Source: a virus
DNA length: 64,000 nt
Strand: one strand, 5' to 3'
Virus record (IMG/VR): IMGVR_UViG_3300018080_000149
Location: 1 to 64,000 of that record
Positions 1-6,139 of this stretch are shown in pieces; the stretch's first letter is position 1, and every line of letters begins with the position of its first letter. A model generated the notes under the pieces. That model had not been told where the DNA came from. It searched no databases and was given only the letters and a program-made list of their open reading frames with translations. Made by a program: the position numbers and the translations under genes.

Positions 1-60
1 CGGGAATCGAACCCGACTGACCATCTGATTTACATCAGATCAGGGTTGTGCTTAGCTCGG
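1..60 (-). ncRNA. tRNA-like element E1 (3' end cut off by window edge)
   Basis: Minus strand CCGAGCT...ATCTGAT-GTAA-ATCAGAT...TCGGG-TTCGATT-CCCG. Starts immediately after the stop of 61..549. T-arm is clear; acceptor 3' strand lies outside the window. Confidence 0.6.
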
Positions 61-549
61 TCAGGTGTGGGACTTCATGTATTCCTGGTGATCCCGCCAC
101 TCCTGAGCCATCGTGACACAGTGGTCATGTGCCTTGGAGTAGTTGTCGAAGTCCTGAGTATACAGCCCCATCGACGCCAGCTTATCCATGATGAGATAGA
201 TAGCCGGGTGATGCTCGCACTGAATACCCTCGAACCGAAGGGACCGGAGACCCGTGAACAACGTCCGAGAGACAGCGCGCTCGTTACAGGCGTCCTGTAT
301 GCTCAGAGCGATATGGGCCAACCGGCTCTCCGTGACAATGTCACACCGGGAACGAAGGTCCATTGCGACGGGGCGAGCGTCGTCACCCTTCTCGTCGAAA
401 CGCTTGACGGCGTCGAGGATGAGGTGCTCGAAACACGAGCCGTCGTTATTCCGACACTCTCGAACCATCTTGACGATGGTTATGTCAGCGTCTTCGTCGT
501 CGATGTGTTGCTCACAGATATCCACCAGAACGCTCCCTACGTACTTCAT
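61..549 (-). CDS. hypothetical protein (small-gene array)
   Basis: 162-aa ORF; its ATG overlaps the stop of the upstream peptide (TAATG). Confidence 0.75.
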   Translation of the reverse strand: MKYVGSVLVDICEQHIDDEDADITIVKMVRECRNNDGSCFEHLILDAVKRFDEKGDDARPVAMDLRSRCDIVTESRLAHIALSIQDACNERAVSRTLFTGLRSLRFEGIQCEHHPAIYLIMDKLASMGLYTQDFDNYSKAHDHCVTMAQEWRDHQEYMKSHT

Positions 550-626
550 TAGAAAGCACCTTCATTGTGAGCATTACGACGAGCCGCGATCCTAGCCTTC
601 TTCTGATCCTTTTTCGTGCTGGACAT
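549..626 (-). CDS. 25-aa basic peptide MSSTKKDQKKARIAARRNAHNEGAF
   Basis: Strong SD (GAAAGGAGG) before ATG at 626; TAATG coupling to 61..549; below the ORF-track cutoff, translated by hand. Confidence 0.6.
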   Translation of the reverse strand: MSSTKKDQKKARIAARRNAHNEGAF

Positions 627-645
627 TTTCTGTCCTCCTTTCACC

Positions 646-700
646 TGGCTCCCGGAGGAGGGATCGAACCTCCTAAATGCCTGACCCTTTTGGTCCGGGA
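646..700 (-). ncRNA. tRNA-like element E2 (55 nt)
   Basis: TCCCGGA/TCCGGGA perfect 7-bp acceptor stem, 20-nt linker, GGAGG-TTCGATC-CCTCC T-arm, G-CCA end, then GGTGAAAGGAGG. Confidence 0.8.
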
Positions 701-708
701 ACTTACAC

Positions 709-978
709 CTATGCGCGGAACTCTACGATATCCCGCTCGTCCTTCTGATAACTGCTGTCGCGGTAGATCCGCCGCGACATAATTGCGCGGTGGACGACCT
801 TCTCTACGTACCTGGATACGTCCTTCGCCATCTCTTCTGCCACCTCGTCGGAGATGTAAACCTCGGAGGAGTGTGGAAATAGCGCGTGCTTGAGCCATGA
901 CGCGAATGAGGCAGCGCCCGATCCGGGGCGCTCCATCGCGTCAAGGTCCAGGACTACTAGGTGTCGCGAATGTGCCAT
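709..978 (-). CDS. hypothetical protein
   Basis: 89-aa ORF with GAAAGGAGAG SD, between E3 and E2. Confidence 0.75.
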   Translation of the reverse strand: MAHSRHLVVLDLDAMERPGSGAASFASWLKHALFPHSSEVYISDEVAEEMAKDVSRYVEKVVHRAIMSRRIYRDSSYQKDERDIVEFRA

Positions 979-994
979 TTATCTCTCCTTTCAC

Positions 995-1051
995 TAGAGC
1001 CCTGGGCGGGAATCGAACCCGCCTAAACCGCCCGTTTGACCGGGCCAGGGC
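995..1051 (-). ncRNA. tRNA-like element E3 (57 nt)
   Basis: GCCCTGG/CCAGGGC acceptor, CCCG-GTCAAA-CGGG mini hairpin, GCGGG-TTCGATT-CCCGC T-arm, T-CTA end, then GTGAAAGGAGAG. Confidence 0.8.
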
Positions 1052-1073
1052 TGCCGTCGTGATCTGACTCAGA

Positions 1074-1568
1074 TCACTTGAGAGCGAGCGTCCAAGCCGA
1101 CGCGCGAACCTCGAAAAGGGTGCTCGCGTCCTCCCACTCGATCTCCTCACCGTCCGCCTGAAGGACGACACCATCCTGAATCAGGAGTGCCACCTTGTAC
1201 GGCTCCAGAGCGGCTTCGAGGTCATCGGGGTCGACGTCGTCACCGAGCTGCTCGGTGACGTAGGCCGCCGGGTCCGTGGTGTGGACCATGCTGGACTCTT
1301 CGTCGTCGCCCTCATAGAAGACGAGCGCGATGATCGAGGACTCCTGCTCCTCTTCTTCGACCTCTTCTTCGACCTCTTCTTCGACCTCTTCCTCCTCCTC
1401 GATCTCCTCGATCTCCTCGGGCTCCAGCTGCTTCGCCTTCGCCTTGGCCTTCTGGTTCTTCTTTTGGGCCTTCTGGTTCTGAGCCTTGGCCTTCGCCTTG
1501 CCCTTCCCCTTCGGAGCGTTCTTGGAGTTGTTGGTCTTGGAGTTGTTGGTCTTCTTTCCCTTTGCCAT
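1074..1568 (-). CDS. hypothetical protein with Lys-rich N-terminus and poly-Glu tract
   Basis: 164 aa, GGAGG SD; MAKGKK...KAKAKAK followed by EEIEEIEEEEEVEEEV. Confidence 0.8.
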   Translation of the reverse strand: MAKGKKTNNSKTNNSKNAPKGKGKAKAKAQNQKAQKKNQKAKAKAKQLEPEEIEEIEEEEEVEEEVEEEVEEEEQESSIIALVFYEGDDEESSMVHTTDPAAYVTEQLGDDVDPDDLEAALEPYKVALLIQDGVVLQADGEEIEWEDASTLFEVRASAWTLALK

Positions 1569-1611
1569 GCTCTCCTCCTATGGAGATAGTATCCGCCCAC
1601 CACGGGCGGCC

Positions 1612-1663
1612 CGGACCTCGTACCTGGAATCGAACCAGGTGAATTGCTGACCATAGCCGAGGT
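1612..1663 (-). ncRNA. tRNA-like element E4 (52 nt)
   Basis: ACCTCG/CGAGGT stem, GCT-ATGGTC-AGC mini D-arm with GG, CCTGG-TTCGATT-CCAGG T-arm, CCG end, then a GC-rich hairpin. Confidence 0.75.
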
Positions 1664-1669
1664 TTGTTT

Positions 1670-1930
1670 CTACGTGTGAACTGACCACTCCCCGTTGCAA
1701 TAGTGGAGTAGCCCGTTCATAAAGAACGACCCATCTGATCTCGTCCACAGGACACTGAAACCCCACTGCGAGAAGTCATAACCTAGTGAAACGGTCAGGT
1801 TCTCGCCGTAGTGGTGAAGGTACGACAGTGCCCCCTCCAACGCTTCGAGTAGTACGTCGCCGCCAGTAGCGGCTTCGATAGCCTTCAACGTAGTGTGGAA
1901 GTGCTCCACATTGTCAATCTTGAGAGTCAT
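1670..1930 (-). CDS. small conserved protein, DUF4120-like
   Basis: Start reassigned to ATG 1930 (GAAAGGAGAG SD); YDFSQWGF...MNGLLHY...WSVHT C-terminus recalls the DUF4120 family. Confidence 0.6.
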   Translation of the reverse strand: MTLKIDNVEHFHTTLKAIEAATGGDVLLEALEGALSYLHHYGENLTVSLGYDFSQWGFSVLWTRSDGSFFMNGLLHYCNGEWSVHT

Positions 1931-1945
1931 TAGCTCTCCTTTCAC

Positions 1946-2015
1946 TGGAGCCCCTACCAGGAGTCGAACCTGGCTAGACTTGCGTCTATGTGATCTCCAT
2001 TCGATCACTAGAGGC
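1946..2015 (-). ncRNA. tRNA-like element E5 (70 nt cloverleaf, GNRA tetraloop instead of anticodon loop)
   Basis: GCCTCTA/TAGGGGC acceptor; GTGATC-GAATGGA-GATCAC D-like arm; TAGAC-GCAA-GTCTA; CCAGG-TTCGACT-CCTGG; T-CCA; then GTGAAAGGAGAG. Confidence 0.85.
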
Positions 2016-2022
2016 TAGTTCG

Positions 2023-2529
2023 TCACACTTTGATCTTGAGTTTCATGCCTTTCTTCGCGGGCTTGGTGGCCTTCCTGCCCTTCTTGGCGGGCTTCTTCTT
2101 GGTGGCCTTCTTCGCCAGAGCCTTCTGTGCCTTGACCTCGTCCTCGATGATCTGAACGAAGGCTCGTCCGTACTCATCCATTTGCCTATTGATAGCGCTA
2201 CACTCCTCGACTGAGTCTCTGACCCAGTCCATACCCTTTGGCGAGTCTTTCAATTTCTTCCTGGTAAGCTCCCAGTAGTATGAGCCATCATCCCGAGACG
2301 CCATTTCGCGGAGTGTCTTGCCGTCCTCGGCGGTCCAAGTCTGGACCTCTCGACCGACGTCAAGAATCAGATCTTGTATTGACGACAACTTCTCGACAAC
2401 CAAGCTAGCACGAGGGGCCAGCGGTCCCGTAGCGGTGCCCACAACACGATTGCGTTTCTTGGGAGCCGCCTCCGGCTCGGCCTGCTTGGCCTTCGCCTTC
2501 TTGCCGCCTTTGTTGACCTTGAGCTTCAT
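2023..2529 (-). CDS. Lys-rich, histone-H1-like-tailed protein
   Basis: 168 aa; KKATKKKPAKKGRKATKPAKK tail; GGAGG SD. Confidence 0.8.
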   Translation of the reverse strand: MKLKVNKGGKKAKAKQAEPEAAPKKRNRVVGTATGPLAPRASLVVEKLSSIQDLILDVGREVQTWTAEDGKTLREMASRDDGSYYWELTRKKLKDSPKGMDWVRDSVEECSAINRQMDEYGRAFVQIIEDEVKAQKALAKKATKKKPAKKGRKATKPAKKGMKLKIKV

Positions 2530-2570
2530 AGTATTTCTCCTCCCTTCAAAAGTGCCCTTTCGGGCGGGGT

Positions 2571-2622
2571 TGGTCCCTGTACCTGGAGTCGAACCAGGAT
2601 GATTTGCTGACCGTAGCCAGGG
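2571..2622 (-). ncRNA. tRNA-like element E6 (52 nt, same subtype as E4)
   Basis: CCCTG/CAGGG stem, GCT-ACGGTC-AGC, CCTGG-TTCGACT-CCAGG, A-CCA, then GCCC-GAAA-GGGC hairpin. Confidence 0.8.
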
Positions 2623-2635
2623 GGTTGATTTAGGT

Positions 2636-2703
2636 GGGGAGCCTTCCCGTCTGTCAGTGAAAGGAGGAGAGCGAAATGCCCGTCCACAGACGGGCGGCTC
2701 CCC
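2636..2703. promoter_or_regulatory. stem-loop whose loop is antisense to the shared RBS leader
   Basis: GGGGAGCC-TT-CCCGTCTGT / ACAGACGGG-C-GGCTCCCC arms enclose CAGTGAAAGGAGGAGAGCGAAATG in inverted orientation. Confidence 0.6.
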
Positions 2704-2742
2704 TCAGAGCGCTCCCTTGCCATCTTCTCTCTCTCCTTTCAC

Positions 2743-2788
2743 TGGTCCGTGGGGCGGGAATCGAACCCGCCTACAACCATTCCACAGA
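2743..2788 (-). ncRNA. tRNA-like element E7 (46 nt minihelix)
   Basis: TCTGTGG/CCACGGA stem, short TGG-containing linker, GCGGG-TTCGATT-CCCGC, CCA, then GTGAAAGGAGAG. Confidence 0.7.
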
Positions 2789-2835
2789 TTGCCGCTCCAA
2801 ACGGCCGTCTGAGTAACGAACGTGTGTCCCTGTCG

Positions 2836-3222
2836 TTAGGCTGCGTCTCGCGCGGCCATCTCGGCGTCGATCCGCCGGATCTCGCGAATCCCCGCGTCGC
2901 CCGGACAGGCGAAACAGAGTGCGTCTTCCCACGACTCCAAGTCATCGGGGAACGTGAAACAACAGGAATCGAACGCCCCCCACCGTCTCCAAACGGTGAG
3001 AACGCCATCGTTCGTCGCCTCGTTCACAGAGGCGACGAACATGTCGCCGAGGTAGATGCGAGCGAATCCGCGGGCGATGACGACCGCGCGGAGCGTGCTC
3101 CCCATCAGGGAAGACGTGAACGAGTCACCGATACCGTGAACGGTACCGAGGACCGAACCGCCCTCACGGGCGGTGCCAAGGATTTCGTTACAGGGGCTAG
3201 TCTTCGTCGTCTTCTTACCCAT
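2836..3222 (-). CDS. hypothetical protein
   Basis: 128-aa ORF with AAGGAG SD, between E8 and E7. Confidence 0.75.
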   Translation of the reverse strand: MGKKTTKTSPCNEILGTAREGGSVLGTVHGIGDSFTSSLMGSTLRAVVIARGFARIYLGDMFVASVNEATNDGVLTVWRRWGAFDSCCFTFPDDLESWEDALCFACPGDAGIREIRRIDAEMAARDAA

Positions 3223-3268
3223 GTCAATCTCCTTGCCTAACCCGTTCTAGTGGGCCAGGTCTTTGTTT

Positions 3269-3332
3269 TGGTGGAATCACTGGGAATTGAACCCAATTTG
3301 ATCGGACTCCGATCAACCTACCAAGGAATTCC
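3269..3332 (-). ncRNA. tRNA-like element E8 (64 nt)
   Basis: GGAATT/GATTCC acceptor, CCT-TGGT-AGG mini D-arm, TTGATCGG-AGT-CCGATCAA hairpin, TTGGG-TTCAATT-CCCAG T-arm, A-CCA. Confidence 0.75.
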
Positions 3333-3528
3333 AGGGGCCAGGGCCAGGGCCAGGGCCAGGGGCCAGGGGCCAGGGGCCAGGGGCCAGGGGCCAGGGGCCA
3401 GGGCCAGGGGCCAGGGGCCAGGGGCCAGGGCCAGGGGCCAGGGGCCAGGGGCCAGGGGCCAGGGGCCAGGGGCCAGGGGCCAGGGCCAGGGGCCAGGGGC
3501 CAGGGCCAGGGGCCAGGGCCAGGGGCCA
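3331..3528. repeat. tandem repeat of CCAGGGG/CCAGGG units (29 units)
   Basis: Read directly: 21 heptamers and 8 hexamers; G3-G4 runs separated by CCA. Confidence 0.98.
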
Positions 3529-3740
3529 TAACCCATTGAAAACGAAAGGTGAATTCCCTCCGTCTAATGAAGTACCTATCCCGCGACAGGCCCTACACGA
3601 GAATCTTTCACTGTAGTATAAACACTTACATGTCTCTAAGTACCTGGAATCATTCAGCTTTTCCTGGGGGCTGTAGACCCCAGGAAAAAAGTGATAGAAT
3701 CGTCTAAACCCTTGAAATCATTGGGCTTTTCAGGAATAGC

Positions 3741-3882
3741 TGATCTGATCAGATCAAAACTGGACGAGATCAGGACAAAAAAGTGAAAAAGATCAGGTTT
3801 TCTGGTCAAATTGGTACGGATCTTGATACGCGTGTGAGTGATCTGATCAGATCAAACCTGGACTGAGTCTAGACAAAAAAAG
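3741..3882. repeat. imperfect ~43-bp direct repeat starting with palindrome TGATCTGATCAGATCA
   Basis: Copies at 3741-3783 and 3839-3882 in the non-coding region. Confidence 0.8.
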
Positions 3883-3912
3883 GGTGGCCCCGTGGCCAAA
3901 GCCACGGGGCCA
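3875..3912 (-). terminator. Rho-independent terminator ending the structural operon
   Basis: 12-bp stem TGGCCCCGTGGC/GCCACGGGGCCA, 4-nt loop, followed by T7 on the minus strand. Confidence 0.85.
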
Positions 3913-3923
3913 AGAGCAGGGAA

Positions 3924-4610
3924 TCACGGGTCCACGGATGACTCACCCTCCAGTGGAACGCGTATTCCCCTGCGGATCAAGAGACGCTTTTCTGACTCGT
4001 CCAGGGTTCGCCACCAGACGTCAACAGGAACCTGTTTTGAGTGCCCGTTTGACACCTTTTCAGCGGCGTTCTTCACAACCCTTGTGGTCTGTTTGATTTC
4101 GGTTGTCTGGGATCTCTGAGCACTAAGTATCGAGTCCAGACGTTTAGAGACCTTAGCCTGTTCGACTGTAAGGTGAGCCACATTGGCTTCCATTGTTGCC
4201 TTGGAAGAGAACCACCCGAAGGCGGAACCAATCACGACAACAGCGACACCTAGTACCCAGAAGATGCGTTTCGAGGCCGCGGTTTTGATCTCGTTCAGAT
4301 CAGTCCCATGTCCAGCTATCTCGCTCTCTGCGGTATTTACCTTGAGAGAAAGCATACCTTGGCCGTCACGTAACTCAGTTACCGCCTCGGTATTTGGGCA
4401 ATCTTTCACGGAATGTGGTGTAAGATTTCTGGTATGTTCTTCGAGTTTTTTGACGCGCCCCTTGGTGCCACGAAGATCTGTCTTTAGAGATATAACGTCG
4501 TCCCTTGTGTGTCGGGTGTCGTCTTTTATCGCACGAAGATCATCCTTGACCTCACCGAGAAACGCTCGTATATTAGCGGCAGTTGGTGGCGGTGTCGGTC
4601 TATCAGTCAT
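3924..4610 (-). CDS. coiled-coil protein with one transmembrane helix
   Basis: IFWVLGVAVVVIGSAFGWF hydrophobic segment; heptad-rich flanks. Confidence 0.65.
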   Translation of the reverse strand: MTDRPTPPPTAANIRAFLGEVKDDLRAIKDDTRHTRDDVISLKTDLRGTKGRVKKLEEHTRNLTPHSVKDCPNTEAVTELRDGQGMLSLKVNTAESEIAGHGTDLNEIKTAASKRIFWVLGVAVVVIGSAFGWFSSKATMEANVAHLTVEQAKVSKRLDSILSAQRSQTTEIKQTTRVVKNAAEKVSNGHSKQVPVDVWWRTLDESEKRLLIRRGIRVPLEGESSVDP

Positions 4611-4618
4611 AATGCCCC

Positions 4619-5077
4619 CTAGACCCACGTCCTGAAAACGAGATAAACGTAGGGTTTATCACCAGAGGTTTTCACGCAGTCATAAGAACACTTTATCCTG
4701 GTGTAGTCTGGCGGGAGAGGGGCGGAACCCTCTGCAATGACGGAAATAGATCCAGAGGGCGGGACTGGACACCCAACCTCGTCAACCAAACCACAGGAAA
4801 GTGCTCTCACTTCGATCCAGTCGTACACCCCAGGAGATACCTCCCACAGAGCTTGAATAGCTATGCGTAGAGAATCGCCGTCCACACCAAAAGTGTAATT
4901 GACAAGCTCGACACTGACACCCTGGATCTGCCTTTCCTCTTGGAATTGTACGTAGTAGTCCGTGACGTCATCTAGTTCGGCCTCGAAATCCACTCCGTAG
5001 ATCTGCAAGTTTTTGTTAGAGTCACCCGTAGGCTCCAAGATAGACGGCTGTACAGTCTGGTTTACCACTGACCTCAT
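4619..5077 (-). CDS. hypothetical (probably virion-associated) protein
   Basis: ATGA-coupled ORF in the structural operon. Confidence 0.6.
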   Translation of the reverse strand: MRSVVNQTVQPSILEPTGDSNKNLQIYGVDFEAELDDVTDYYVQFQEERQIQGVSVELVNYTFGVDGDSLRIAIQALWEVSPGVYDWIEVRALSCGLVDEVGCPVPPSGSISVIAEGSAPLPPDYTRIKCSYDCVKTSGDKPYVYLVFRTWV

Positions 5078-5640
5078 AGCAGCACGACCTCCGCGCGACC
5101 CCTGACAATACACTCGAAACGGTCAAGGTCTGTCAGGTCATCGCTCACAGTAAGCGTCAGAGCGCCGTTAGATCCAGCACTTATTACAATACACTCGGGG
5201 AAGTTGATCTCTATCAGTAGGAGATCCACCCCCGAGTCTACGGCGTCCTTGTCGTACTGTATTTCATCTGCGTACAGATAGAAGTCTGACAGCTTGTAGA
5301 CAGGGTCTAAGAACAGTGGTACGTCCTCTCCATCATGCGTAAACTTGAAAGTAATACCGTTGTCCAGGCCGTCTGAATGGCCCTTCCCAAAGTCTTGACC
5401 TTCCTTGCTCGTGATGTTGAGCTTGTCCCCATGAAGGATCAGGCGAATCCTGTCGATTGACTTGTGAAGAGTTGCGTCAGTTGTGACGGAGAACTCGACA
5501 GGTGTCGAAGACCCGTCAACAGCCATGTCCGAGGAGCCCTGGTTCACCAGTTTCTCCAGCAGATATCTGTGACCGTTGGGGTCCACCCCAGCGTCGAGGT
5601 GAGCTTTCACTGTGTTCGTCACTACAGTATTCAGTGGCAT
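5074..5640 (-). CDS. hypothetical (probably virion-associated) protein
   Basis: 188 aa, beta-rich, contiguous in the operon. Confidence 0.6.
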   Translation of the reverse strand: MPLNTVVTNTVKAHLDAGVDPNGHRYLLEKLVNQGSSDMAVDGSSTPVEFSVTTDATLHKSIDRIRLILHGDKLNITSKEGQDFGKGHSDGLDNGITFKFTHDGEDVPLFLDPVYKLSDFYLYADEIQYDKDAVDSGVDLLLIEINFPECIVISAGSNGALTLTVSDDLTDLDRFECIVRGRAEVVLL

Positions 5641-5641
5641 A

Positions 5642-6139
5642 TCATGTCTCCAAATACCCGCGAGCGACCGCGTCTATCTCCTGGCTGGAGTTAGATATGC
5701 GCTCTCTCTTGATAACAAACCTAGTGTTCGTGCCGTTACCAACCATGGACGTACCATCCCTGGTAATTGACGAATCTGGCAGATTGAAACACAACGTCTG
5801 ACCGACGATGTATATCCTGTCGATCAGATGATCCGTCGCAGGACTACCCTCTCGCCAGTAGAACTCCACCTTGGACCCACGCTCCGACGGATCACCGGCG
5901 GCTCCGGCGCACAGCATTTGAACTTTTAGCGTAACACCGTTAGCGATGATTGACGACAAAGTCTCTTTCGGTGTTGTACTAACTGAGAGTTCAGCCTCGT
6001 CCTGCGCTAGAGCGAACTCTGTCGTACCAGTAGGCGGGACAGGCGGGCTAGGGGACACTTTCAAAGCGTTGTTCGAGTTGACGTCTGCTACGCTTGTACC
6101 ATCCTCGTTTACGATCACTCGTGCTGGTCCATCCATCAC
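5642..6139 (-). CDS. hypothetical (probably virion-associated) protein
   Basis: 165 aa, coupled to neighbours. Confidence 0.6.
   Translation of the reverse strand: MMDGPARVIVNEDGTSVADVNSNNALKVSPSPPVPPTGTTEFALAQDEAELSVSTTPKETLSSIIANGVTLKVQMLCAGAAGDPSERGSKVEFYWREGSPATDHLIDRIYIVGQTLCFNLPDSSITRDGTSMVGNGTNTRFVIKRERISNSSQEIDAVARGYLET

Follow-up and report, generated by a model that had tools for sequence, protein, structure and literature searches.

The stretch of DNA analysed here (the window) comprises bases 1-64000 of an 87,400-bp IMG/VR virus contig (G000, record IMGVR_UViG_3300018080_000149), and its first kilobases belong to an array of small early genes in which nearly every intergenic gap holds a transfer RNA (tRNA)-like fold that combines an acceptor stem with a T arm and has no anticodon. 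The contig is classed by IMG/VR as linear, with a CheckV completeness estimate of 100%. Its source is an uncultured myophage, with genes for a tail sheath, a major head protein, a portal and a large terminase that shows 33% identity to the terminases of SPO1-type Bacillus phages. A megablast search with positions 1-6000 against phage records returned no near-identical phage. The GC content is 51-60%, and nearly all long open reading frames (ORFs) lie on the minus strand, so that every feature of the finding described below is read on that strand. The array extends from 3.3 kb down to position 1 and continues at 87.4-83.9 kb of the contig, with at least 12 tRNA-like elements in about 7 kb. In its unit the fold passes through a tail N73-C74-C75-R76 into an extended Shine-Dalgarno (SD) leader, (GU)GAAAGGAG, behind which comes the start codon. 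Packing is tight: three elements start 7-8 nucleotides (nt) past the upstream stop codon, and elements end at the SD.

The first element of the array, E8 (3269..3332, minus strand, as are all features listed here), is composed of an acceptor stem, an arm formed by the palindrome TGATC-N7-GATCA, a T arm and, as its tail, A-CCA. No leader is fused to E8, whose SD (AAGGAG) is situated 36 nt downstream and which precedes an early gene of 128 amino acids (aa; 2836..3222) without family match. E7 (2743..2787) is a mini-tRNA of 45 nt with the acceptor CTGTGGA/CCCACGG, a 10-nt linker, the T arm GCGGG-TTCGATT-CCCGC and the tail A-CCA; its leader GTGAAAGGAGAGAGAGAAG with the ATG behind it (2721..2742) is predicted to form one strand of a 17-bp stem with an anti-leader that we discuss below. 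E6 (2571..2622), a mini-tRNA of the GGCTAYGGTCAGCAA type with the tail A-CCA, is followed by a hairpin and no leader, the spacer behind it (2527..2570) carrying the hairpin GCCCGAAAGGGC, the SD GGGAGGAG and the ATG of gene X (2023..2529), which encodes 168 aa with a Lys-rich N-terminus. E5 (1946..2015) combines an acceptor paired at 7/7 positions, a palindrome arm, an arm with a GCAA tetraloop, a T arm and the tail T-CCA, and its leader GTGAAAGGAGAGCTA leads to the ATG of gene Y (leader and ATG, 1928..1945; gene, 1670..1930, 86 aa). E4 (1612..1662), a mini-tRNA paralogous to E6, has the tail T-CCG and a hairpin next to it; the spacer (1566..1611) contains this hairpin, CCGCCC-GTGGT-GGGCGG, the SD AGGAGGAG and the ATG of gene Z (1074..1568; 164 aa, Lys-rich and then acidic). 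E3 (995..1051; acceptor 7/7, a small hairpin, T arm) ends in T-CTA, not CCA, and continues into the leader GTGAAAGGAGAGATAA and the ATG (976..994) of an 89-aa gene (709-978). E2 (646..700), a mini-tRNA with a 7/7 acceptor TCCCGGA/TCCGGGA, the T arm GGAGG-TTCGATC-CCTCC and the tail G-CCA, is followed by the leader G-GTGAAAGGAGGACAGAAA and an ATG (624..645). Two ORFs without family match come next (61..626), one of 25 aa (626-549) and one of 162 aa (549-61). The 25-aa ORF, which the E2 leader serves first, is very basic, and its stop overlaps the ATG of the 162-aa gene (TAATG), which suggests translational coupling. Of the last element, E1 or J5 (1..50), only the 5' part is present, cut by the contig start.

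On the coding strand the leader accompanies tRNA-like elements only. Exact copies of GTGAAAGGAG number five in the 64-kb window, against 0.18 expected, a count that none of 100 shuffles reached. Four of them are on the coding strand (644-635, 994-985, 1945-1936 and 2742-2733) and start 0-1 nt past position 76 of E2, E3, E5 and E7, respectively. The junctions read ...TCCGGGA-G-CCA-G-GTGAAAGGAGG at E2, ...CCAGGGC-T-CTA-GTGAAAGGAGA at E3, ...TAGGGGC-T-CCA-GTGAAAGGAGA at E5 and ...CCCACGG-A-CCA-GTGAAAGGAGA at E7, with ATGs at 626, 978, 1930 and 2723, that is, 5-9 nt past GGAG. The fifth window copy is on the plus strand (2657-2666) and hence is an antisense copy on the transcript. One further exact sense-strand copy exists in the whole contig, TCCA-GTGAAAGGAGG at 87373, directly behind a T arm. 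All five sense-strand copies in the 87.4 kb therefore start 0-1 nt after position 76 of an element, and a search of the same 87.4 kb found none away from elements. Degenerate forms of the leader (GGTGAAAAGGAG, GTGTGAAAGAGAGGAG and TGTGAAAGGGGG) follow the elements at 87047, 84986 and 83965, and E4, E6 and E8 are not fused to a leader, having a hairpin or a 30-36-nt spacer ahead of the SD. The first-pass annotation had proposed that E2, E3, E5 and E7 are each followed within 0-1 nt by the leader and then by an ATG; the junctions and counts uphold this, except that E3 has a CTA tail and that the ATG of E7 is doubtful.

As a ribosome-binding site the leader is exceptionally long. The genes behind it match the complement of a generic 16S tail, AGAAAGGAGGTGATC, over 8-9 contiguous nt, compared with 4-6 nt for 81 of the 91 other predicted genes, only two of which reach 8; these matches were scored against a generic bacterial tail, from which that of the host may differ. 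On the coding strand AAAGGAG is confined to 74.7-87.4 kb and 0-2.7 kb, which is the early region. The GTG ahead of GAAAGGAG is not accounted for by a generic SD; two anti-leader sites on the same strand contain its complement. We also considered this GTG as a start codon and rejected it, as it is in the frame of the ATG in only 2/4 copies and has no SD ahead.

Tails (positions 73-76) were tabulated for 25 elements, 11 of this phage and 14 of G001, a 95.8-kb genome whose capsid protein is 74% identical and which is the only close relative. C74 is present in 11/11 elements here and 9/14 in G001 (20/25 for both, p about 1e-8), C74C75 in 7/11 and 7/14 (14/25, p about 3e-11), and the full CCA in 6/11 and 1/14 (7/25, p about 3e-8). 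The usual tail in G001 is N-CCG-AAAGGAGG, and CTA and TCG are other recurrent tails. The conserved 3' feature is thus N-C74-C75 plus a purine (A or G at 76), not CCA as such, and of the "CCA end" originally assigned to the module the CC stands while the complete triplet is a minority form. By analogy with known substrates, C74C75 fits docking of ribonuclease P (RNase P) better than it fits a true, aminoacylation-type CCA end. The RNA of bacterial RNase P pairs with the two cytosines of RCCA. In the array the 3' side of the element is not free and runs on into messenger RNA (mRNA). Cleavage of small substrates depends on the RCCA motif (PMC12710915), and hairpins made of an acceptor and a T arm are efficient RNase P substrates (PMC11143913).

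Several measures show that the folds are real. The T-loop motif GGTTCGAWTCC, with one mismatch allowed, was counted 12 times where 2.3 were expected. Of its nine matches on the minus strand, eight lie in intergenic gaps of the first 3.3 kb, and the ninth (2965-2975) is inside the 128-aa gene. The T arm is that of canonical tRNAs (a 5-bp stem with a TTCRANY loop) stacked on a 7-bp acceptor, the deviant T loops being two G001 copies with TCCGATT and one with TTCGTGA. Stem pairing was assessed in 21 elements of this phage and G001 with 2000 permutations. The T stem is paired at 5/5 positions in 21/21 elements, with GC, CG, AU and UA exchanges at three positions, whereas joining the 5' strand of one element to the 3' strand of another gave a mean of 3.36 and a maximum of 4.05. 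The best acceptor pairing averages 6.05/7, against 5.51 (maximum 5.86) for a null in which the position was re-optimised. With E6 and E4 as its only seeds, a covariance model picked up six further elements of the phage (E<0.03), and a model built from eight of its elements found four in G001 (E 6e-4 to 6e-3). Every match of the eight-element model in the window at E<=1 is on an element, and the same model also picks mini-elements in three unrelated contigs. In the model alignment 94% of cells pair and both sides change in 10/12 pairs, with a covariation score of 0.52 as against 0.12 after shuffling (0/500 shuffles reach 0.52) and at most 0.10 for slid partners, figures that are somewhat flattered by an alignment fitted to the covariance model. 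That alignment was used because a whole-element MAFFT alignment misplaced the 5' acceptor strand; a loose structural descriptor, which gave about 8 matches per strand in shuffled sequence, was not retained for detection. Selection acts on the folds.

No element is a tRNA. In the window and in the whole contig ARAGORN detected no tRNA gene, and its mitochondrial mode produced 28 calls strewn over the genome, which are uninformative. A scan of Rfam at gathering thresholds returned nothing. The best score for RF00005 is 16.2 bits, for E7 (gathering threshold 29), and the other hints, all below threshold, are limited to tRNA-Sec (21.6 bits for E8) and mascRNA (mascRNA-menRNA, RF01684; 18.7 bits for E3 against a gathering threshold of 42.5). 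An anticodon arm (7-nt loop, U33, anticodon, purine 37) was found in no element. The space between acceptor and T arm is occupied by a linker of 10-22 nt, often with UGGU, or by one or two extra hairpins (palindrome, tetraloop). The TGATC-N7-GATCA palindrome that serves as the extra arm in E5 (1991-2007) and E8 (3299-3315) is found genome-wide, and the G001 elements at 1865, 2541, 5369 and 8721 have the same arm. The elements seem to be non-decoding, the tRNA-shaped part having been kept only for its effect on the message.

It could be argued that such elements are decayed tRNA genes, functionless relics of an ancestral phage tRNA cluster whose genes lay against the ribosome sites of small genes, and that the leader is simply the local SD. 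Real phage tRNA genes with an encoded CCA do abut (T)GAAAGGAGG in other IMG/VR contigs, among them L067, L068, L071, L083, L079 and L053, and extra arms are retained in E5, E8 and the G001 element B_599. We nevertheless consider this origin without present function very improbable, since all 25 elements are non-decoding and yet have a perfect T stem and a near-consensus T loop, their acceptors pair above chance with compensatory changes, and neither array holds an intact tRNA. Neutral decay, moreover, would not keep C74C75, nor a leader found nowhere else in the genome.

Another idea is that the released mini-tRNAs, a dozen or more in number, are themselves the product, acting as decoys or sponges for host factors that bind tRNA, such as processing enzymes, the CCA-adding enzyme or tRNA-directed defence nucleases, with the fusion to the SD being incidental to the tight packing. 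The many copies in the region expressed first, the retention of the T arm and acceptor stem, which is the part that such factors would bind, and the encoded CCA of more than half of the elements here (6/11) agree with it. Against it, CCA is encoded in a single one of the 14 G001 elements, sizes and extra arms vary widely, and the elements have no anticodon loop. Known anti-phage tRNA nucleases usually target anticodon loops. We would give this explanation hardly any weight.

The element, its tail and the leader behave as one unit. Pairwise local alignments extend from inside the element through tail and leader up to the ATG, B_599 and B_1537 of G001 for instance agreeing at about 90% over 88 nt. 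Families of modules can be recognised (B_8233/B_8721/B_5369; E7/E3 and J3, the contig-end copy), as can the pairs E6/E4 and E2/87047, and E3 resembles B_599 and B_1537 across phages, its CTA tail and GTGAAA included. The proteins encoded behind look-alike modules show no mutual similarity, so the unit propagates independently of the gene; the alignments support a spread of element, tail and leader together, regardless of what follows them. The proposal that mini-tRNA and ribosome-binding site form one repeated module is in this respect well founded.

Comparison with G001 extends this to gene order. The first 8.8 kb of G001 contain 14 tRNA-like elements, each of them on the coding strand, and in most of the G001 modules the SD starts 0-4 nt past the tail. 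Both arrays open with a short tandem repeat and close near a helicase gene (66% identical). The two phages share only four of about 15 array genes, namely X (G001 homologue B_3082, 34-35% identity), Z (B_3743, 34-36%), Y (B_5408, 35-39%) and the helicase. Gene Y is located between X and Z here, while in G001 X and Z are adjacent and Y is 1.2 kb further on. In both phages Y is preceded by an acceptor, a TGATC-N7-GATCA arm, a T arm, N-CCA and (G)TGAAAGGAG, the G001 element ahead of B_5408 ending in A-CCA-TGAAAGGAGG. Because the element before Y matches in both phages, the cassette has moved whole, as element, leader and gene. In both phages, the element ahead of X and the one ahead of Z lead into a hairpin, with the SD behind it. 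E4 and its positional counterpart in G001, B_3679, have in common a 16-nt linker, an N-CCG tail, a hairpin and the SD TAGGAGGAGA; their stems have almost no sequence in common and are still paired, which is good comparative evidence for the predicted fold. The array is thus a variable locus whose gene order is not invariant among relatives, as the first-pass annotation had anticipated when it suggested the shuffling of gene cassettes.

These comparisons support the view that the module also supplies homology for cassette swapping, as a 40-90-nt unit placed before unrelated genes. An explanation confined to this, in which the module is chiefly a boundary of repeated DNA for the swap, duplication or loss of early genes, a function proposed for the promoter/stem-loop repeats of T4-type phages, and has no role in RNA processing, draws on the near-identical modules that stand before unrelated genes, on the small set of array genes held in common with G001 and on the displacement of Y along with its element. 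It also draws on the contig ends. Positions 1-15 and 87386-87400 share 15 nt of a T arm, and the element produced by joining the ends looks chimeric (T stem 4/5, acceptor 4/7). Because this joined element is unlike all others, the contig is probably broken inside the T arm of a repeated module, and sequence may be missing there. Recombination, however, needs identity and not compensation, whereas the stems vary freely and yet pair; E4 and B_3679 are alike in architecture and almost wholly different in stem sequence, and the T-loop consensus and C74C75 are features of RNA, not of DNA. A boundary function with nothing more to it is therefore improbable in our judgement.

Outside this pair of phages we did not encounter a second array. 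The capsid search yielded two large relatives, G001 and the more distant G002, and G003 has no array. A metagenome scan with the helicase retrieved only G001's own contig and distant helicases, and an IMG/VR scan for a T loop combined with GTGAAAGGAG retrieved mostly real tRNAs and no second array. As to the genes of the array, searches of Pfam and PHROGs gave names only to the helicase and a Kyano_Gp96-like protein. Genes X and Z have no family match; both have Lys/Ala-rich N-termini, Z has in addition a long Glu-rich repeat, and both genes are conserved in G001. Judging by composition, their products could be nucleic-acid-binding early proteins.

Just upstream of the array, a strong terminator (3912-3885; a 12-bp stem and a T run) closes the preceding operon and is followed by a non-coding stretch of about 340 nt (window 3540-3912), which is likely to be an early promoter or control region. 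This stretch holds TGATCTGATCAGATCA palindromes and, at 3611-3605, a GTGAAAG located 3 nt past a TATACT box. If transcription starts there, the primary RNA would open with GUGAAAG, as in the processed leaders. A consensus scan, which is a weak test, found no sigma-70-like promoter on the coding strand of 1-3880. Directly upstream of E8 (window 3334-3530), the coding strand carries (CCTGGCC/CCTGGCCC)n, a tandem repeat. The corresponding place in G001 (L022:1-125) is occupied by another repeat, (CCTGGAGCCCGGC)n, and the 119-bp "terminal repeat" of G001 falls inside it. Possible roles of the tandem repeat ahead of the first element are those of a genome end, a packaging site or a leader.

We see an even chance that the module is a cut mark for host tRNA-trimming enzymes and sets the ends and the lifetime of early messages. 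The array would be transcribed into a polycistronic early RNA in which each fold is a "cut here" signal for the tRNA-processing enzymes of the host, the best-fitting of which would be RNase P, whose textbook minimal substrate is an acceptor/T-arm hairpin with C74C75. By cutting at +1, RNase P would release the cistron upstream, and the downstream mRNA would then open with a fully paired 5' end and have its 8-9-nt SD within 4-10 nt. A second cut at or just past the tail, by RNase Z or an enzyme of the RNase E/Y type, would leave an mRNA starting 0-6 nt before the SD; at E4, E6 and their G001 counterparts, the tail-side cut would give a message beginning with a hairpin. Each of these new 5' ends would belong to a known type of stabiliser, whether a terminal structure, a strong 5'-proximal SD of the STAB-SD kind or a hairpin. 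No CCA-adding enzyme and no RNase Z-type gene or fold was found to be encoded by the phage, so host enzymes would have to act. Elsewhere, RNase E of E. coli cuts 1-3 nt past an encoded CCA, and polycistronic tRNA transcripts can be separated by RNase P alone, both as described in PMC2190699. A strong 5'-proximal SD protects mRNA from RNase J1 (STAB-SD, PMC4113751), and a mutation of the ribosome-binding site shortens the half-life of a phage SP82 mRNA (PMC7509114).

The module would thus determine message ends and lifetime, and a structural switch of translation is improbable. The suggestion that processing gates translation through structure finds no support in prediction, as the accessibility of the SD is the same in the precursor, the 5'-cut and the 3'-cut forms. 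This equality of the unpaired probability, essentially unchanged by in-silico cuts, is one of several points that weigh against a processing role. CC at 74-75 is missing in 11/25 elements, several acceptor stems are only 5/7 paired, and the acceptor pairs 6:67 and 7:66 are often mismatched. CCA is an anti-determinant of RNase Z, and a CC(A/G) tail is expected to hinder that enzyme. The 3'-side cut is consequently uncertain for elements with such tails. Co-transcription has weak backing in the consensus promoter scan. G002, whose capsid is 59% identical, has no recognisable array.

Another explanation starts from the GTG of the leader and concerns two anti-leader sites. The 12-mer TCCTCCTTTCAC occurs on the sense strand of the 87.4 kb only as AL1 (window 2657..2668, read 2668-2657 on the transcript) and AL2 (73063-73052). 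AL2 (UCCUCCUUUCAC; minus strand, contig 73052-73063) is outside the window, in a gap 9 nt past a later gene. AL1 was also considered as a plus-strand ribosome site for a 46-aa ORF and rejected, its G001 copy having no start codon after it; no start codon follows AL2 either. The RNA between E7 and E6 (2623-2745), in which AL1 is embedded, is predicted to adopt a three-way fold in which the E7 leader pairs with CUCUCCUCCUUUCAC to give the closing stem of 17 bp (-54.8 kcal/mol, z = -3.4). Because the leader is locked in this stem and the 65-aa ORF behind it runs through E6, this ORF is probably no gene; on the folding model the E7 ATG is probably not a start, nor the E7 leader a working ribosome-binding site. 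The E7-E6 RNA may instead be a small RNA freed by the flanking tRNA-like cuts, or a site of the RNase III type.

The GUGA of the leader and the base before it might accordingly be kept for pairing with the phage anti-leader RNAs AL1 and AL2, which would mask early ribosome sites, for example in early shut-off, and which the folds would excise or present; this is compatible with processing. We regard it as a tentative and rather doubtful possibility. The complementarity of AL1 with the leaders of E7, E5, E3, E2 and J3 spans 11-13 nt. For AL2 it spans 13 nt with the E2 leader and 10 nt with the variants GUGUGAAAG(G) at 84939 and 83902. The predicted duplexes reach -22 to -31 kcal/mol, for most leaders among the best 0.1-0.7% of 1500 random sense-strand windows, as compared with only -11 to -16.5 kcal/mol for the leaders with a generic 16S tail. 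In G001, TCCTCCTTTCAC occurs once, at the syntenic spot upstream of X, and 16 nt (CTCTCCTCCTTTCAC and one base) are identical between the phages within otherwise unalignable spacer DNA. The G001 anti-leader is presented in an 8-nt hairpin loop of a stable predicted fold (z = -3.1 and -4.9), and GTGAAA is kept in G001 even where the SD is 9 nt further on. The flanks covary, the leader CAGUGAAAGG being paired with the anti-leader CCUUUCACUG here and UCGGUGAAA with UUUCACCGA in G001: the base before GUGAAA is A here (from CCA) and G in G001, and the anti-leaders have CACUG and CACCG correspondingly. This covariation, however, amounts to one base pair in two phages, and any sequence resembling an anti-SD matches strong SDs. 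According to the folding prediction, the E7 leader takes up AL1 completely in cis, which may keep AL1 from acting in trans; the local fold of AL2 is not better than shuffles (z = -1.0), and most G001 leaders have no GUGA and match through the SD core only. The antisense reading is drawn from two genomes.

Processing and antisense pairing could also be halves of one two-part control unit, in which the fold would recruit host tRNA-processing enzymes that divide the early RNA into separate messages, each with a protected 5' end, and the leader (C)AGUGAAAGGAG would be an address for anti-leaders that mimic the 16S tail. We think this combination unlikely. The same cuts would release AL1 from the array, a later transcript would supply AL2, and the phage would tune or shut off all leader-bearing early genes together. 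If true, this would be a regulon of one leader, matured by tRNA enzymes, of a type so far undescribed for phages. The shared leader and its two antisense copies suggest that the early set could be controlled through one short RNA address.

Among known systems, the C4 antisense RNA of P1/P7, which is matured by RNase P (PMC11143913), recalls AL1 with its flanking elements E7 and E6. It differs in that there is no relation in sequence or structure, and here the target would be a leader common to many genes and would be reached in trans. C4 masks the ribosome-binding region of its own operon. The promoter/stem-loop repeats (PeSL) of T4-type phages are mobile regulatory cassettes. Like the modules here, they are short repeats placed around variable small genes of the early region, and both could mediate modular shuffling. 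A PeSL, however, contains an early promoter together with a stem-loop of the terminator kind, whereas the consensus scan found no promoter in the present modules, and the fold here is tRNA-like. The module also offers a concrete explanation of gene exchange among phage early regions.

With regard to message stability, the STAB-SD of cry3A (PMC4113751) and, in the early RNA of phage SP82, a polypurine stabiliser (Hue et al. 1995, cited in PMC7509114) place a long SD near a processed 5' end, as we propose for the array; in these systems binding of the 30S subunit at the SD blocks 5'-to-3' decay (PMC4113751, PMC7509114). A STAB-SD does not initiate translation, whereas the SD here also serves a gene. 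SP82 is a phage of the SPO1 type, and the terminase encoded here is distantly SPO1-like (33%). RNase III generates the SP82 end, and does so at a hairpin instead of a tRNA-like fold. The processing of early phage messages is known mainly through the RNase III hairpins of T7 and SP82, and through real tRNA genes.

Co-transcripts of tRNAs and mRNAs in phages and bacteria provide a further parallel. In IMG/VR contigs, real tRNAs with an encoded CCA are followed by (T)GAAAGGAGG and a small gene, and the module resembles this tRNA-SD junction minus the decoding half, no element here being a tRNA. The junction of a tRNA 3' end with an SD is ordinary in phage tRNA clusters, and the module probably descends from it. 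Anticodon-less mini-tRNAs were also noted in unrelated IMG/VR contigs (L060:4375-4422 and 4780-4825, L060/G004; L064:4254-4297; L028:1214-1258, L028 family; L041/L086; L015). These are single or paired, with a 7-bp acceptor, a linker of about 10 nt and a T arm, and are placed 3-6 nt before GAAAGGAGG and a start codon; several were found by the model of this phage at E 0.01-0.03. Such units of mini-tRNA and SD suggest that the device reaches beyond one lineage. We found no description of a module of this kind in phages in the literature. What is unusual here is that all copies are non-decoding and possess the processing half, that at least 12 repeats stand at the head of early genes, and that the leader has antisense sites. 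The phage seems to keep only the part of the tRNA that is read by enzymes, joined to a very strong ribosome site, before a dozen fast-evolving genes.

There is also a likeness in anatomy to model hairpins for RNase P (McClain, Guerrier-Takada and Altman 1987, reviewed in PMC11143913), which have the same 7-bp acceptor on a 5-bp T stem and then N-C-C, the CC being shared by 14/25 elements. Those hairpins are synthetic and have a free 3' end, while in the array the mRNA continues, position 76 is A or G, and pairs 6 and 7 are often mismatched. The closest systems described so far are mitochondrial tRNA punctuation and the t-elements of plant mitochondria. The t-elements (Forner et al. 2007, PMC1920247) are likewise non-decoding folds with GGTTCRANYCC at the borders of coding messages, and their ends coincide with 5' or 3' ends of mRNAs made by RNase P and RNase Z (PMC1920247). 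The elements of this phage share the sequence characters of t-elements, namely a non-canonical fold, GGTTCRANYCC and a position next to coding regions. They depart from t-elements and from mitochondrial tRNA punctuation in forming an array in a phage, in that many are hairpins of 45-55 nt, and in that the ends are predicted; in addition, a Shine-Dalgarno leader is fused to them, which organelle messages do not have. If the cuts occur, the module would be a compact and portable cut-then-translate part for the building of operons, and the array as a whole would be the counterpart, in a bacterial virus, of mitochondrial tRNA punctuation and of the t-elements of plants.

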